The notes under the pieces are model-generated. The model saw only the letters and a program-made list of their open reading frames with translations, made no database searches and was not told the origin of the DNA. Positions 1,421-10,595 of a DNA stretch of 57,850 nt are shown in pieces. The stretch's first letter is position 1. Every line of letters starts with the position of its first letter. Origin of the DNA: Oscillospiraceae bacterium (lineage in GTDB: Bacteria; Bacillota; Clostridia; Oscillospirales; Ruminococcaceae); contig JAILPP010000135.1 in assembly GCA_024699425.1 (NCBI GenBank), positions 1 through 57,850 of the forward strand, read 5' to 3'. A program made the position numbers and the translations under genes.

Positions 1421-1449
1421 TTGCATTTTCCGACAGGATATGGTATAAT
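1421..1449 (+). promoter_or_regulatory. Sigma-A type promoter for the SCIFF operon
   Basis: TTGCAT (1421-1426), 17-nt spacer, extended -10 TGgTATAAT (TATAAT at 1444-1449). Confidence 0.55.
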
Positions 1450-1494
1450 GAGAAAAGGAGCTTTGCTCGACATTTCAAAGGGAGGTAGATACAC

Positions 1495-1641
1495 ATGAAG
1501 CACATTATGACCATCAACAAGGCTAATCTCAAGGAGAGCGCTGCGAAGGGCGGCTGTGGCAACTGTCAGGCATCCTGCCAGTCTGCCTGCAAGACTTCCT
1601 GCACGGTTGCGAACCAGAAGTGCGAGAAGGACGAAAAGTAA
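1495..1641 (+). CDS. Six-cysteine peptide SCIFF (ranthipeptide/RiPP precursor), 48 aa
   Basis: Not in the ORF track because it is under 60 aa. Translation is MKHIMTINKANLKESAAKGGCGNCQASCQSACKTSCTVANQKCEKDEK. It has the GGCG.CQ.SCQSACKTSCTV core with six Cys that defines the SCIFF family. GGAGG lies 9 nt upstream, and the cognate maturase is immediately downstream. Confidence 0.93.
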   Translation: MKHIMTINKANLKESAAKGGCGNCQASCQSACKTSCTVANQKCEKDEK

Positions 1642-1696
1642 ACCGTATTTTCTCCGGTGACTTTTCGGAAGCGGTGCTGCCGTTTCCTGTCCGCAA

Positions 1697-1726
1697 TGCC
1701 CCCAATGCCTTACGGCAAAGGGGGCA
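1697..1726 (+). promoter_or_regulatory. Intercistronic stem-loop between precursor and maturase (possible partial terminator or stabiliser)
   Basis: TGCCCCCAATGCC-TTAC-GGCAAAGGGGGCA forms 7 + 4 bp with a 2-nt internal mismatch. It is followed by the T-rich stretch tgtgttactgtgttttct. Confidence 0.4.
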
Positions 1727-1789
1727 ATGCTGTGTTACTGTGTTTTCTGCCGCATAACGGCTGAAATTCCCGATATAAAGGAGATTACC

Positions 1790-3169
1790 ATGATTCATAA
1801 ATATTACCTCGGCGGTCTGTACATCGTTTTGGATGTCAACAGCGGCGGCGTTCATATTGTGGACGAGATGACCTATGATCTGCTCGATCACGTTGCACCG
1901 CCCTTTGCGGAGGAATGTCCGCAGGACGTGCTGGAGAAGCTCTCTGACAAATATGATCCGCAGGAGATCGCAGAATGCTATGCGGAGATCGTTTCCCTCT
2001 ATGAGGAGCGTATCCTCTTTTCTCCCGATGATTACGAGAAGTATGCCAGATTTACCACGGCTTCACCGATCAAAGCAATGTGCCTGCATATTGCCCATGA
2101 CTGCAATCTGCGCTGCAAGTACTGCTTTGCCTCTACAGGCGATTTTGGCAAGGGACGCAAGCTGATGCCCGTGGAGACAGGTAAGAAAGCAATTGATTTC
2201 CTGCTTGAAAAGTCCGGCGACCGCAAGAATCTCGAACTGGATTTCTTCGGCGGCGAACCGCTGATGAATTTTGATGCCGTCAAGGAGATCGTCCGCTATG
2301 CCCGCAGCCGTGAGGCGGAATTCGGCAAGCGCTTCCGCTTTACGATCACAACAAACGGCGTTCTGCTCGATGATGACAAGATCGACTTCATCAATCAGGA
2401 AATGTCCAATGTCGTGCTGTCTCTGGACGGACGGAGAGAAGTTCATGACCGTATGCGCCCCGCTGTCAACGGCAAGGGAAGTTATGACGTGATCCTGCCG
2501 AAGTTCAGAAAACTTGTGCAGCAGCGCAGCCGTGACAAGGACTGGTATGTGCGGGGAACGTTCACAAAGTTCAATCTGGATTTCTCCGAGGACGTGTTCA
2601 GCCTGCATGATGCGGGGTTTGACCAGATCTCCGTGGAACCTGTCGTTGCCGATCCCAAGTATCCCTATGCTCTCACGGAAGAGGATATTCCCGCAATTTC
2701 TGCGGAATATGAGAAACTGGCACAGCGCCTGCTCGAAAATGACCGCAAGGGTCAGCATTTCAATTTCTTTCATTTCATGATCGACCTCGATCAGGGTCCC
2801 TGCGCTGTCAAGCGTCTGCGGGGCTGCGGCTGCGGCAATGAATATGTCGCTGTCACACCGGACGGGGATATTTTTCCGTGTCATCAGTTCGTCGGCAATG
2901 ACGATTACAAGATGGGCAACCTTGATGACGGAACGTTTGACACCGAAATGAAGGAACGCTTCGCACAGACCCATATTTACAATAAGCCCGCCTGTCGGGA
3001 GTGCTGGGCGAGATTCTATTGCTCAGGCGGCTGCAATGCCAATAACTACCAGTACATGGGCGACGTACTGAAAGCGCACACCCTCTCCTGCGAGTTTGAA
3101 AAGAAACGTGTGGAATGTGCGATCATGCTTCAGGCAATGCGCTCCCTCGATCAGGGCGATGCAGAGTAA
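1790..3169 (+). CDS. SCIFF radical SAM/SPASM maturase (thioether-forming)
   Basis: 459 aa from MIHKYYLGG. It has the CNLRCKYC radical-SAM cluster motif and a C-terminal Cys-rich SPASM region (CGCGNEY...CRECWARFYCSGGCNANN). It is adjacent to the SCIFF precursor. AGGAG RBS is present. Confidence 0.92.
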   Translation: MIHKYYLGGLYIVLDVNSGGVHIVDEMTYDLLDHVAPPFAEECPQDVLEKLSDKYDPQEIAECYAEIVSLYEERILFSPDDYEKYARFTTASPIKAMCLHIAHDCNLRCKYCFASTGDFGKGRKLMPVETGKKAIDFLLEKSGDRKNLELDFFGGEPLMNFDAVKEIVRYARSREAEFGKRFRFTITTNGVLLDDDKIDFINQEMSNVVLSLDGRREVHDRMRPAVNGKGSYDVILPKFRKLVQQRSRDKDWYVRGTFTKFNLDFSEDVFSLHDAGFDQISVEPVVADPKYPYALTEEDIPAISAEYEKLAQRLLENDRKGQHFNFFHFMIDLDQGPCAVKRLRGCGCGNEYVAVTPDGDIFPCHQFVGNDDYKMGNLDDGTFDTEMKERFAQTHIYNKPACRECWARFYCSGGCNANNYQYMGDVLKAHTLSCEFEKKRVECAIMLQAMRSLDQGDAE

Positions 3170-3176
3170 ATGACAA

Positions 3177-3210
3177 AAAGGGAAAACGCTGAATCAGGCG
3201 TTTTCCCTTT
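3177..3210. terminator. Bidirectional rho-independent terminator between convergent genes
   Basis: AAAGGGAAAACGC-tgaatcag-GCGTTTTCCCTTT is a 13-bp stem. It is flanked by A-run/T-run sequence on both sides. Confidence 0.7.
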
Positions 3211-3213
3211 GTT

Positions 3214-4356
3214 TTATTTTGCGGGGAGTGCGGGAATGATACCGATGACATGTTTCAGAAGTACCAGACTGTCGTCAGAGGTGATATCCTCGTCGGCGTT
3301 GACATCGGCATTCTTCTGCGCATCGGGGCTGAACGTATTCGCTCCGACAAGATACTTGTTCAGTGCGATCACGTCAATAATGTCAATCGTATCGTCTAAG
3401 TTCACATCGCCGCATTTCAGGGTTTTTGACGATGTTGCGGACGTGGTGTCCTGCGTAGGCGGTGCAGTTGTGTCCTGTGCGGCTGCGGGTGTGATCTCCG
3501 CTAAACTCGGATGCACGTCACCCCACCAGTCCCACACATTTCCCTGACGGTACGGTTCTACACGTTCGTCATTTGTCCATGTGAATACATTATCATACAA
3601 GTGCCCTTCCTCATAATACCAGCGGGCAAGGGAAATGATCTCATCGGGGTAGTTCTTGTAGTAGCCGTCATCTTCCCCCGTGAAATTAGACCAGCCTGTG
3701 TTGAAGCCCTTGAGTGCGCCCCGTGTCACCTGATAGCCTTCGAGTCCGTCTGTGGTCATTGCCACGACACAGAAATGCATGATCTTCCGTACACCCATAT
3801 GATCGGATATGATGCCGTCATAAAATGTATTTTCGGCAAGGGAGTACTGGAACATTTCGGGCACGTCCTCTTCTTTCATAAAGGTCGGGTCGGCATCGGC
3901 AAAGGCGGTCACGGCAGTCTGCAATGTGCCGTAGGCATGGGCGGAACTTACGCCGAATCCCTGACTCTGCGCTGTTTCGATGTCTGCACCGTCACCGTTG
4001 CCGCCGAGGGTGCTTTCTCTCGTACCGACACCAAGGAACAGGGCATAGACCTTTTCACGCTCCGTCTGTCCCGTGCGGGTGGAGATCAGATCCCAGTGTT
4101 CGTCAATTTCCTTGTAGAGTGCATACTTGACTTCCTGCACGGTCATTTTGTGATTGATCGCGCGGATCTCTTCGGTGGAGGCGTTCTCCGGCGTGTTGCG
4201 TTCACCGTAATTGAACGGGTTGCCGACACCCTCTGTCTGCACGTCACGGGAAGGGTCGTGGGCGATCTCGTCCGAGGCATGGACGGGGAACGTACTCAGC
4301 AGAAGAAGTCCTGCTGTGAACAGGGAAATCATTCTGCCAAAACGGGAATGCTTCAT
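3214..4356 (-). CDS. Secreted dockerin-containing protein with an uncharacterised N-terminal domain
   Basis: Signal peptide MKHSRFGRMISLFTAGLLLLSTFPVHA. The C-terminus has two dockerin repeats (GDVNLDDTIDIIDVIALNKYL ... ADVNADEDITSDDSLVLLKHV) after a T/P/A linker. Confidence 0.7.
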   Translation of the reverse strand: MKHSRFGRMISLFTAGLLLLSTFPVHASDEIAHDPSRDVQTEGVGNPFNYGERNTPENASTEEIRAINHKMTVQEVKYALYKEIDEHWDLISTRTGQTEREKVYALFLGVGTRESTLGGNGDGADIETAQSQGFGVSSAHAYGTLQTAVTAFADADPTFMKEEDVPEMFQYSLAENTFYDGIISDHMGVRKIMHFCVVAMTTDGLEGYQVTRGALKGFNTGWSNFTGEDDGYYKNYPDEIISLARWYYEEGHLYDNVFTWTNDERVEPYRQGNVWDWWGDVHPSLAEITPAAAQDTTAPPTQDTTSATSSKTLKCGDVNLDDTIDIIDVIALNKYLVGANTFSPDAQKNADVNADEDITSDDSLVLLKHVIGIIPALPAK

Positions 4357-7281: not shown

Positions 7282-8460
7282 TCAGATCTTCGGGACGGGC
7301 TGCGGACGGTGGTCGTCCAGTACGGCTTCAGGGTGACGCATCAGGTCTTTCATCTTTTCCGGATAATAGTACAGGCGGAAACCGTCAAGGTTGCGGCGTG
7401 CCTGTCGGACGTATCGGGTATTCAACTGCACCCATGCATCCTGTGTGTTGTCTACGTTCAGGAAATAACGGAATCCGTGATTGTACAAAAGCCTGAATTT
7501 TTCGGTGTCCTCATACGCATCGTGGTAAATATTCGATGTGATGTCCGCACCGTAGGGATAGATCAGAATGTCACTCCCACCGACAACACTGCCGATACGT
7601 TCTTCCCAGCGGTTGGTGTCGTATTCGATCGTGCTGTAACTGCTCTTCGTGAAATTGATATGCCCGTAAGAGTGAGAGGCGATCTCGTAACCGCTGTTCC
7701 GCAGGGCATCGGCAACGGCTGAGGCTTCTTTGCATTCCTTCTCAAAGTCAGGGGAATCGGGGTTGTCTACCGCACGGTAGCCGAATACGCCTTCGTATCC
7801 TGTGACGGCTATGACAGCCTTTGCCCCGTTATAGGAAAAATCAGGGTGCGCTTCGACAAATTCATCCAGAATCGGCACAAGATCATATGCGCCTGTCATG
7901 GTCTTGCCCTTGTCGGTGTATTCGCAGACGACTTTTCCGTTTCTGACCACAAGACGGGTCGCAAATCCGTCTCCCGTCATGTAGTTGTAGTAATTCACAT
8001 CGTCCTGTGAGATGATAACAGGTTTCTTTCCTTCGGGAAGGTAAATATCCCCCGGTACAAAGCCGTCCTCTGTTTCCGTGGCAATGTCGTGCTGGCGCAC
8101 CAGAACATAATCATTTTCGTAAAGCTGATCTAAGATCGTCCTGAACTCCTGCACGGTCGTCATGTAAATATTATACCCGTCATCTTCGCCGTCATTGTCA
8201 AACGCAAGGTCGGGGTCATAGATCAGCGAATGAAAGAAGATATGCGGCGTTTCTGCGGGATCTTCAACTCGTACAAGAACGGGTTCGGTTGTCGGTTCTT
8301 CGGTAATCGGCGGCGGTTCGGTCGCGGGCGGTTCTGTGGGTGGGTCTGTCAGCACGGCAAATGTCTCCTCTTCTGCGGTCGGAAGTTCTGTCTGCATTCC
8401 GCAGCCGCTGCTTCCGAGCAGAAGCACGGTCAACAACAGCGGCAAAAGATGTCGTTTCAT
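7282..8460 (-). CDS. Polysaccharide deacetylase-family lipoprotein
   Basis: Lipobox LLLGSSGC, then a P/T/E-rich linker, then an ...ASHSYGHINF... deacetylase-like His motif. Confidence 0.55.
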   Translation of the reverse strand: MKRHLLPLLLTVLLLGSSGCGMQTELPTAEEETFAVLTDPPTEPPATEPPPITEEPTTEPVLVRVEDPAETPHIFFHSLIYDPDLAFDNDGEDDGYNIYMTTVQEFRTILDQLYENDYVLVRQHDIATETEDGFVPGDIYLPEGKKPVIISQDDVNYYNYMTGDGFATRLVVRNGKVVCEYTDKGKTMTGAYDLVPILDEFVEAHPDFSYNGAKAVIAVTGYEGVFGYRAVDNPDSPDFEKECKEASAVADALRNSGYEIASHSYGHINFTKSSYSTIEYDTNRWEERIGSVVGGSDILIYPYGADITSNIYHDAYEDTEKFRLLYNHGFRYFLNVDNTQDAWVQLNTRYVRQARRNLDGFRLYYYPEKMKDLMRHPEAVLDDHRPQPVPKI

Positions 8461-9284
8461 TCAGGATTCCCCCATTCGTTGCTTTTTCGTCCGTAGTGTT
8501 CATATATCCGCCATGTCAGGTATACCACACCAATGTCATACAGAAGCTGTAAAATGGTCGTTTCCGCTTCACTGATGCAGTGCATAAAGTAAAATGCGGG
8601 AAATATATCTGTCAGCGTGTGCAGAATCACAGCAGCGACAAGCCATTTTTTGCTGTCTGTGTAATGCACGGACGTGAATACCAGCACCGACATACTGCAC
8701 TGAAAAAGAGCTGCGGCAACGTTGCTTGATGTGACAAACAGGCTGTGCGGAAATGTGATGCCGGAAATCGTCCGCATGATCTCCGGTATCCCTTCACTGT
8801 CCTGTCCGTCCATCAGGAAGAAGGCGGGCTTGCCGGGTGCAAAGCCTTCCAATCCGTAAAGACGGAAGGAAAGGGCGCACAGAATAGCAAACAGATTTTC
8901 CGCAGGATGACTGACAAGCACCGCTTCCAGTCCGCCGTGTCCGATGCCGCAGGACACGGCATCACGGTAATTCTGTCGGTTCGGAATCAGATAGCGGAAT
9001 ACCAGATAACGCCCGCATTCCTCGAATACGCCCGCAAAGACCGCCTGCCAGAGGTAGTACCCCCACGGCGATGTCTCTTTCATGGGGTTGAGCAGGATTG
9101 CCCGTGCCGCACCCCGCACCGTGCCGATCACCAGATAGCCGAGTACGCCCGCAAGCATCGGGATCCATGCAGCGTGTGTTTTCCTGCGCCAGATGATCCA
9201 GAGCGCAAACGGCAGAAATGTGCTGCTGATGCCGCTGACGATCATGCCGATGATCTGCAATGTGCTGATCTGTATTTCATCCAT
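8457..9284 (-). CDS. YhfC-family intramembrane metalloprotease (DUF2324/CPBP-like)
   Basis: Multi-TM protein with GVFEECGRYLVFRYL and GIGHGGLEAV motifs. Confidence 0.6.
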   Translation of the reverse strand: MDEIQISTLQIIGMIVSGISSTFLPFALWIIWRRKTHAAWIPMLAGVLGYLVIGTVRGAARAILLNPMKETSPWGYYLWQAVFAGVFEECGRYLVFRYLIPNRQNYRDAVSCGIGHGGLEAVLVSHPAENLFAILCALSFRLYGLEGFAPGKPAFFLMDGQDSEGIPEIMRTISGITFPHSLFVTSSNVAAALFQCSMSVLVFTSVHYTDSKKWLVAAVILHTLTDIFPAFYFMHCISEAETTILQLLYDIGVVYLTWRIYEHYGRKSNEWGNPE

Positions 9285-9293
9285 GCACTGCCC

Positions 9294-10595
9294 TCACAGG
9301 ACGATGCCGAGGACGGCATCAAGCAGTTCCCAGCCGTCATTGGCAACGATGCGGATATGCGTCCGCAGGGCTTCTTCCACCTGCGGAATGGTGTAATCAT
9401 CGAGAAATACATCACTGTCACGGCGTATCATGGCGGTGGATAATAACAATTCCTCTCCGATGTCCGTATCTTTGAGCTGGGCAGTCAGATCTTGTCCGGT
9501 AATCAGTCCGGTCACGGTGATCGTTTCGCCGAAAAAGTCGTTCCGTATCGGAATGACCTGCACGGTCAGCCCCGGAAAAGCGGCTTCCGCTTCCCGCATC
9601 AGCGACTGCAAAAAGGAGAATGGTGATCTGCCCGTTGCGATCGTCACCTTGCGGGGGAGCTGTCCGGGTTCGGCACAGGTCAGGGCTTCGTGAAATTCGT
9701 CCGCAAGGGAACGCAGCATTCCGACGCCGTTTTCGTACTGCGGATATTCTTCGTAGTAGTCCGCCGACGGGATCTCCCGTCCGGCAAGCAGGAAAAATTC
9801 GTCCGAGGGAAATACTGCCCTTGTGCCGTGCTGCTGCATGAACTGCGCCTGATAACGTCCGATGATGTCCAGTGCCTGTGCAGCGGTTTCCGCTGTGAAC
9901 GTTGTCAGGGGATACAGCCCCTGACGGTATTTCGTGACACCAAGCGGCACGATGGCAACGCTTGTCAGGTGCGGGAGCATTTTGCCGAGGTCGGTCAGTG
10001 TGCGTTCGAGTTCGGGACCGTCATTCAGTCCGGGACAGAGAACGATCTGACAGTTGAGCTGAATGCCTGCTTTTGCCATCTGCCAGAGAAAGTCCAGCTT
10101 TTCGCCTGCAAAACGGTTCTGCATCATCTTGCAGCGCAGTTCCGGGTTGGTCGTATGTACCGAAACGTTGATGCCGAGGCGCATTTGGATAATGCGGTCA
10201 ACGTCCTCCTGTGTCATGTTTGTGAGAGTGACATAGTTGCCTTGCAGGAAGCTCAGGCGGGCATCATCGTCCTTGAAATAGAGCGTTTCCCGCATTCCCG
10301 GCGGGAGCTGGTCAATAAAACAGAATACGCATTTGTTGCGGCAGGACTGTTTTTTGTCCATCAGGAAACTTTCAAATTCCAGACCGATGTCGTCATATTC
10401 GTCTTTCTGAATGCGGACATTCCGCACATCGCCGCCGTGATCTATGGCGAGAATCACGTCCGTTTCGGCGGCGTAGAACATATAGTCCAGTACGTCACGC
10501 ACATTGTGTCCATTGATCGAGACGAGCCGTTCACCGGCTGTGATTCCCGCACGATCGGCGGGGGAGTGCGGGATGACGTTTGTGATCGGAACCAG
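9294..10595 (-). CDS. DUF512 (TIGR03279-like) PDZ + radical-SAM-related protein, probable CTG start
   Basis: Conserved body CRNKCVFCFIDQLPPGMR. The PDZ-like N-terminus ITNVIPHSPADRAGITAGERLVSINGH lies upstream of the first GTG (10502) with no ATG/GTG/TTG in frame. GGAGGAGG lies 9 nt upstream of the CTG at 10595. Confidence 0.7.
   Translation of the reverse strand: MVPITNVIPHSPADRAGITAGERLVSINGHNVRDVLDYMFYAAETDVILAIDHGGDVRNVRIQKDEYDDIGLEFESFLMDKKQSCRNKCVFCFIDQLPPGMRETLYFKDDDARLSFLQGNYVTLTNMTQEDVDRIIQMRLGINVSVHTTNPELRCKMMQNRFAGEKLDFLWQMAKAGIQLNCQIVLCPGLNDGPELERTLTDLGKMLPHLTSVAIVPLGVTKYRQGLYPLTTFTAETAAQALDIIGRYQAQFMQQHGTRAVFPSDEFFLLAGREIPSADYYEEYPQYENGVGMLRSLADEFHEALTCAEPGQLPRKVTIATGRSPFSFLQSLMREAEAAFPGLTVQVIPIRNDFFGETITVTGLITGQDLTAQLKDTDIGEELLLSTAMIRRDSDVFLDDYTIPQVEEALRTHIRIVANDGWELLDAVLGIVL

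Follow-up and report, generated by a model that had tools for sequence, protein, structure and literature searches.

A SCIFF precursor and maturase gene pair in an uncultured Ruminococcus-like Oscillospiraceae bacterium, with a conserved extended -10 promoter and a putative intercistronic attenuator

Does the 147-nt open reading frame (ORF) that precedes a radical S-adenosylmethionine (SAM) enzyme gene in the Oscillospiraceae bacterium contig JAILPP010000135.1 (assembly GCA_024699425.1) encode the peptide on which that enzyme acts, and what might set the amount of the peptide relative to the enzyme? We addressed these questions in positions 1 to 57,850 of the contig, the 57,850-nt stretch of DNA that we refer to as the window. 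An original prediction, made from the letters of this stretch, had described a self-contained scfA-scfB unit with a hairpin between its two genes, that is, a precursor peptide of the SCIFF family together with its maturase, and tests against hidden Markov models (HMMs) showed this core reading to be correct. We conclude that the locus, which comes from an uncultured Ruminococcus-like Oscillospiraceae bacterium, is very probably a canonical scfA-scfB (SCIFF/ranthipeptide) operon that works by the mechanism proposed below. The gene pair is real, well formed, already known and routinely annotated, and consists of the following components:

1480-1485, + strand: ribosome-binding site (RBS) of scfA, GGGAGG, 9 nt 5' of the ATG
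1495-1641, + strand: scfA, 147 nt with an ATG start, encoding a 48-aa SCIFF precursor (TIGR03973 and PF13165)
1778-1783, + strand: RBS of scfB, AAGGAG, 6 nt 5' of the ATG at 1790
1790-3169, + strand: scfB, encoding a 459-aa radical SAM/SPASM thioether-forming SCIFF maturase (TIGR03974, PF04055 and PF13186)

The translation of scfA, MKHIMTINKANLKESAAKGGCGNCQASCQSACKTSCTVANQKCEKDEK, comprises a leader of about residues 1-18 and a core that starts at G19, and its six cysteines (at 21, 24, 28, 32, 36 and 43, within about 45 residues) agree with the count and the gene boundaries given earlier. It matches TIGR03973 with 81.6 bits (cut-off 50), covering profile positions 1-43 of 43, and PF13165 with 84.6 bits (cut-off 27), which bears out its earlier assignment to the SCIFF precursors. 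The cysteine spacing GGC-x2-C-x3-C-x3-C-x3-C-x6-C is shared with 125 of 132 SCIFF family representatives, and the C5-x6-C6 interval taken by itself gives the same count. The charged KCEKDEK tail, previously thought unusual, turned out to be ordinary for the clade: a KCE[KR][DE]x[KNQ] ending recurs in about 27 of the related scfA loci, and the tail after the last cysteine is five residues long in 38 of the 132 representatives (two residues in 43 and four in 29). The exact 48-aa peptide is already held in NCBI nr, IMG, ENA and Logan, on several contigs; the other sequences in its 90% cluster bear the name 'six-cysteine ranthipeptide SCIFF', and the family is routinely annotated by PGAP and IMG. 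Its description as unlisted thus holds for the length cut-off of the ORF track and not beyond it.

The frame is short and lies under typical ORF-caller cut-offs, as would be expected if it were a chance opening without translation. The comparative data have already refuted this reading, whose probability we regard as negligible. When 74 distinct scfA nucleotide sequences are compared with that of the window, the codon differences comprise 1066 synonymous versus 234 non-synonymous changes (about 4.6 to 1), rising to 625 versus 55 (11 to 1) in the core region, and 1156 of 1535 nucleotide differences fall at third positions. Given this prevalence of synonymous and third-position changes, the small ORF is clearly a coding sequence under strong purifying selection. 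The chance reading is further contradicted by the passing scores against both models, by the annotation of the peptide by NCBI and IMG, and by the strong RBS and conserved promoter that precede the ORF. The RBS, anticipated as GGAGG and found as GGGAGG, aligns as a AAGGGAGG, ACGGAGG or AAAGGAGG block in 11 of 13 loci, the same columns holding GGGGTG in one of the remaining loci (L010) and a gap in the other (L021).

The scfB ATG lies 148 nt past the scfA stop codon on the same strand, and the encoded 459-aa enzyme has the CNLRCKYC motif and the SPASM cluster that had been noted in it. Its score against TIGR03974 ('thioether cross-link-forming SCIFF peptide maturase') is 717.6 bits, well over the cut-off of 425, so that its earlier placement in the SCIFF maturase type stands. 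The radical SAM domain (PF04055) retains an intact CX3CX2C motif at residues 105-112, identical in CteB, the maturase of Clostridium (Acetivibrio) thermocellum. The SPASM domain (PF13186; 29.6 bits, cut-off 21.5) was searched with the regular expression CX9-15GX4C ... CX2CX5CX3C ... C, which describes the ligands of two auxiliary [4Fe-4S] clusters; the motifs are intact at residues 346-364 and 402-415, with Cys338, Cys434 and Cys443 in addition, so that the SPASM cysteines span residues 338-443. CteB is also the nearest solved structure (PDB: 5WGG and 5WHY), with which scfB aligns end to end (E 8e-174 over residues 1-450). The two enzymes have all SPASM cysteines in common, and the part of CteB with which residues 1-90 align is its N-terminal region, the RiPP recognition element (RRE) of the crystal structure. 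The window enzyme differs from CteB in a four-residue insertion in its N-terminal domain and in the sequence CGCG at residues 346-348 where CteB has CGSG. The extra cysteine, Cys348, lies beside a SPASM cluster ligand, and CGCG is also seen in the ScfB of one related locus (L047). A longer version of scfB beginning at ATG 1727 (480 aa) was rejected, this codon being inside the spacer hairpin described below; we preferred ATG 1790 for its MIHK start, common to CteB and all relatives, and its AAGGAG RBS.

Could this enzyme instead be an ScfB-related orphan maturase with another substrate, the adjacent small ORF being incidental? The exception model for such proteins (NF040492, 'ScfB-related orphan maturase', 'not_ScfB') gives a raw score of 597.5 bits, a high value owed to the close paralogy of the two families. 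This score nevertheless falls far under the NF040492 cut-off of 855, the enzyme does pass TIGR03974, and a bona fide ScfA is encoded 148 nt upstream, a pairing repeated in nearly all relatives (see below). The model cut-offs effectively refute the orphan reading, which we consider highly improbable. The enzyme belongs to the same superfamily as the freyrasin maturase PapB and QhpD, with which it shares the SPASM architecture, but it is not an orthologue of either since the corresponding models give partial matches of 279-280 bits, below their cut-offs of 340 and 453; it likewise falls short of the CcpM and nif11 maturase models. Freyrasin itself differs in having six Cys-Asp beta-carbon links in a repetitive core (PMC8326336).

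We then asked whether the two genes are consistently linked. A scan of a genome collection with ScfB recovered 80 loci, with identities of 73-82%, from Ruminococcus/Oscillospiraceae genomes and metagenome-assembled genomes that originate from rumen and gut. In 79 of these scfA lies upstream of scfB on the same strand; the exception is truncated, with no more than 124 nt upstream. The SCIFF family, ScfA/ScfB (TIGR03973/TIGR03974), was reportedly defined by Haft and Basu in 2011. The window agrees with it in passing both models and in having a two-gene cassette on one strand, and its 148-nt spacer lies within the 500 bp of ScfB in which ScfA is expected (Haft; PMC5300114). At the protein level scfB is the sole member of its 90% cluster, with a best ScfB identity of 82%, and the source of the window thus appears to be a species that lacks close sequenced relatives. 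Its surroundings differ from the classical SCIFF neighborhood: a flavin reductase and YdjM (PF04307) are encoded upstream and a convergent Cel124-dockerin protein downstream, the latter two corresponding to the YdjM-like and dockerin neighbors already recognized. The classical tgt-yajC-DUF3792-scfA-scfB-spoIIM context is present in L083 and L084, and R. callidus keeps yajC-DUF3792. None of the window neighbors (flavin reductase, YdjM, Maf, tautomerase, PlsY, Der) recurs within 4 kb of scfAB across the 80 loci, which argues that the conserved unit is the two-gene cassette. Such a cassette of SCIFF and ScfB is found in nearly all Clostridia and is among the most conserved there of those encoding peptides that are made by the ribosome and modified after translation.

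The resemblance to characterised systems suggests how the product might be made. In characterised orthologues ScfB cleaves SAM reductively and the leader is bound through the RRE, and a sulfur-to-gamma-carbon thioether forms from Cys32 to Thr37 in vitro (Tte1186a, CteA) and to Thr34 on co-expression in E. coli (PMC8326336). The window peptide is of the same length class as CteA, the substrate of CteB, and has Cys32, Thr34 and Thr37 at identical numbering, as well as Cys21, the residue near an auxiliary cluster in the CteB structure (PMC8326336); its tail and its genomic context differ from those of CteA. We propose that a bicistronic transcript would start from a conserved sigma-A promoter that has an extended -10 element, that the 48-aa precursor would be translated from this transcript by way of its strong RBS, and that ScfB would bind the leader through its RRE-like N-terminal domain. 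The enzyme, by means of its radical SAM [4Fe-4S] cluster and two SPASM auxiliary clusters, would then remove a hydrogen from a side chain and link a core cysteine sulfur to a non-alpha carbon, the analogy with CteA/CteB pointing to Cys32 and the gamma carbon of Thr34 or Thr37. The hairpin at 1693-1730 would stop or stabilise a fraction of the transcripts after scfA, and scfB would be expressed only by read-through, so that the stoichiometric substrate would be in excess over the catalytic enzyme, and a strong bidirectional terminator at 3177-3210 would close the operon. With CteB and Tte1186 as models for the thioether chemistry, the scfA peptide would join the ranthipeptides, the class defined by sulfur-to-beta- or gamma-carbon thioethers. 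On this part of the proposal, it counts against us that the literature disagrees on the acceptor (Thr37 versus Thr34) and on the modification of the other five cysteines (PMC8326336).

To examine how expression of the pair begins, we aligned the 150 nt upstream of scfA from the 13 loci mentioned above, and recognized the following element:

1421-1449, + strand: scfA promoter, with -35 TTGCAT at 1421-1426, a 17-nt spacer and extended -10 TGgTATAAT at 1441-1449

The extended -10 is perfect, as the original prediction of a consensus extended -10 promoter for this gene would have it, and the -35 matches the consensus at three of six positions, which is why a promoter scan missed the element. Both CTTGC at the -35 and T.TG.TATAAT at the -10 are invariant in the 13 loci while the flanks average only 47% identity, and ATATGGTATAATGA is present also in the more distant locus L083; the promoter is therefore a clear phylogenetic footprint. 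No description of this conserved extended -10 was found in the searchable literature. Two further elements in the vicinity were considered. Just 5' of the -35 lies an exact 9-nt direct repeat, GCACGGAGA (1374-1382 and 1394-1402; 20-nt period, with an A-rich run after each copy), whose copies a repeat search did not report. We dropped the idea that it is a LytTR/response-regulator site linked to quorum sensing, since the 12 aligned relatives do not conserve it. A palindrome, GAGC-TTT-GCTC, of 4 bp in the window, lies at 1458-1468, about +3 to +13 in the predicted transcript; most relatives hold it as AGAGC-n3-GCTCT, AAGAG-n4-CTCTT or AGAGT-n3-ACTCT, with changes that are apparently compensatory. 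The 5' untranslated region of scfA folds no better than shuffles (z = +0.25), and the palindrome could be a repressor or other DNA operator rather than an RNA element.

The 148-nt spacer between the genes, in contrast to the region upstream, folds far better than shuffled sequences (-57.9 kcal/mol, z = -4.1), and includes:

1667-1687, + strand: first intergenic stem-loop, 9 bp, no T-tract, in the minimum free energy fold of 1642-1792
1693-1730, + strand: intercistronic hairpin, a putative leaky terminator or 3' stabiliser, -24.9 kcal/mol
1731-1749, + strand: interrupted T-rich tract, TGTGTTACTGTGTTTTCTG, with a TTTT run about 12 nt from the stem

The second hairpin has a 14-bp stem with two 2x2 internal loops around a core at 1697-1726. 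We scored a spacer as having a terminator-like site when a perfect stem of at least 6 bp was followed by at least 5 T in 8, and found such sites in 48 of 56 distinct related scfA-scfB spacers, compared with 2.4% of shuffled spacers; most of the others have R. callidus-type A-tract/T-tract stems, in which our script absorbed the T-run into the stem. The stem sequences vary by clade (TGCCCCAC.., ACTGCCCTGC.., GAGGCAGT.., AAAGGGACAG..) but the position is kept, the hairpins ending 21-85 nt 5' of the scfB start apart from one outlier at 117 nt (L046). The terminators TGCCCC...GGGGC-TTTTTCT of the relatives are positionally homologous to 1693-1730, and a MAFFT alignment places the TGCCCC arm of the window in register with theirs. 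No promoter-like site was found on the + strand of 1642-1790 in the promoter scan, and a separate scfB promoter was rejected on that account; in many loci the hairpin also leaves little or no room for such a promoter and a 5' untranslated region. Expression of scfB would thus rely on read-through, which implies that the hairpins are leaky, and on this structural and geometric basis they are most likely leaky terminators (attenuators). A related spacer of the [Eubacterium] siraeum type (L081, 299 nt) has two copies of the same terminator hairpin (CTCCCGAAAAATACGGGAG-CTTTTGG) at a distance of about 194 nt, and looks like a duplicated attenuator module:

3169-3201 and 3363-3381 of the [Eubacterium] siraeum-type locus: duplicate hairpins

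The window copy is an outlier among these hairpins, its stem being rebuilt as a longer interrupted helix with a TTTTCTG run about 12 nt away. The GC-rich hairpin originally placed at 1697-1726 is present and extends to 1693-1730, whereas the T-rich sequence said to follow it is so only loosely: the tail TGTGTTAC has 4 T in 8, short of our U-tract threshold, and neither a terminator scan nor our stricter script called the site. These points speak against attenuation here; termination efficiency may be low, and for want of a canonical U-tract termination is less certain in the window than in its relatives. The suggestion that the hairpin skews the precursor-to-enzyme ratio has accordingly gained from the family-wide count while being qualified by the non-canonical tail of the window copy. 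The same interrupted tail favors another explanation, in which 1693-1730 is a 3' protective or processing structure, the spacer being cleaved and the scfA fragment shielded from 3' exonucleases, with the same precursor excess arising post-transcriptionally. The unusual length and stability of the stem and the second hairpin upstream of it (1667-1687) are in keeping with this, as is the finding that internal terminators, through their folding energy, influence upstream transcript stability as well (PMC9045158). The relatives, however, have textbook stem and T-run terminators at the homologous position, which argues that termination is ancestral. We therefore hold protection as the main function to be unlikely, though a serious candidate, and the two functions are not mutually exclusive. 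More speculatively, if the leaky terminator is a family-wide feature, its window copy may be a factor-dependent or conditional attenuator that couples the maturase to a physiological signal; this is improbable, but it would tie the maturase level to that signal rather than to a constant ratio.

Precursor-proximal stem-loops also occur in nisA-nisB and sboA-albA, and the putative scfAB attenuator and conserved promoter are instances of a familiar design principle. No directly usable sboA-albA or lantibiotic precedent was found in the literature searched, nor was any described scfA-scfB attenuator found in the searchable literature. The closest parallel is with cellulolytic clostridia, in which the stoichiometry within operons is set by internal terminators whose GC stems are long and whose tails are poor in U (PMC9045158). 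As in those cases, the window has a stable stem-loop directly after a highly needed first cistron, a GC stem longer and a tail lower in U than is canonical, and a downstream gene, here scfB, that would be reliant on read-through. The differences are that the U-tract of the window is more degenerate than in its own relatives, and that no experimental demonstration for a SCIFF operon was found in the literature searched.

What the mature peptide does is the weakest step of the explanation. The original prediction had called the role unresolved, but a link to quorum sensing and sporulation in solventogenic clostridia has been reported (Chen et al. 2020, as cited in PMC8102284 and PMC8326336). According to PMC8102284, disruption in C. 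beijerinckii lowered the expression of sporulation genes and raised that of agr; set against this, the quorum-sensing role comes from one study in distant Clostridium species (Chen et al. 2020, via PMC8102284). Nearly all Clostridia have the SCIFF system, and no species has more than one copy of it (PMC8326336); as noted originally, genes for an exporter, a leader protease or immunity are absent next to scfAB, both in the window and in the relatives examined. Given this near-universal, single-copy distribution and the lack of immunity or export genes, we favor, with moderate confidence, a cell-density or developmental signal as the most likely role. Many radical SAM thioether peptides (the sactipeptides) are antimicrobial (PMC8326336), and the mature SCIFF might by that token be a secreted bacteriocin-like antimicrobial rather than a signalling or intracellular peptide. 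The absence of adjacent immunity, ABC-exporter and leader-protease genes tells against this, reviewers weigh the distribution of the system against an antibiotic role (PMC8326336), and the C. beijerinckii knock-outs altered sporulation and agr expression (Chen et al. 2020, via PMC8102284); an antimicrobial function is accordingly quite improbable. Beyond correct annotation the finding matters little. Curated HMMs, a crystal structure and a partly defined chemistry exist for SCIFF/ScfB, and the only mildly new part is the comparative one, namely the sharp conservation of the extended -10 promoter and the predicted attenuator between scfA and scfB across the family. As by-products, the footprinted promoter, the position-conserved internal terminator and the fact that only two genes travel together offer a clean handle for testing the precursor-to-enzyme ratio or for expressing the pair from a rumen Ruminococcus-like organism.

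Beyond the cassette, one further element completes the transcription unit:

3177-3210, both strands: bidirectional intrinsic terminator, a 14-bp stem with GTTTTATTTT after it on the + strand, and also scored on the - strand

The scfAB operon ends at this terminator, and so does the convergent Cel124-dockerin gene. A sub-threshold Rfam match to sraL that overlies the terminator is probably due to chance; at gathering thresholds no Rfam family was found in the spacer or in the window as a whole, and no tRNA or tmRNA gene was found in the window. The convergent gene (3214-4356, - strand) codes for a secreted protein with a Cel124-family catalytic domain (PF21908, E 2.6e-72) and a C-terminal type I dockerin, a neighbor that marks the host as a cellulosome-producing Ruminococcus-like organism. 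Some 5-7 kb downstream of the cassette (8457-10502, - strand) are genes for a YhfC-family intramembrane metalloprotease (PF10086) and a DUF512/Radical_SAM_2 protein, which show no link to scfAB and do not recur near it in the relatives. Finally, about 12 loci of the R. flavefaciens type (L047, L037, L039, L040, L043, L044, L048, L059, L067, L069, L072 and L078) have a gap of about 1.67 kb between scfA and scfB, compared with 50-270 nt elsewhere. In L047 the insert (2409-3999) has three ORFs on the same strand between the two genes, whose products are a cysteine-rich protein of 110 aa with a weak TPR match, a protein of 192 aa with a TIR domain (PF13676, E 9e-14) and a membrane protein of 204 aa that matched no Pfam model above cut-off, and a gene set with a TIR domain is an odd presence inside a SCIFF cassette.

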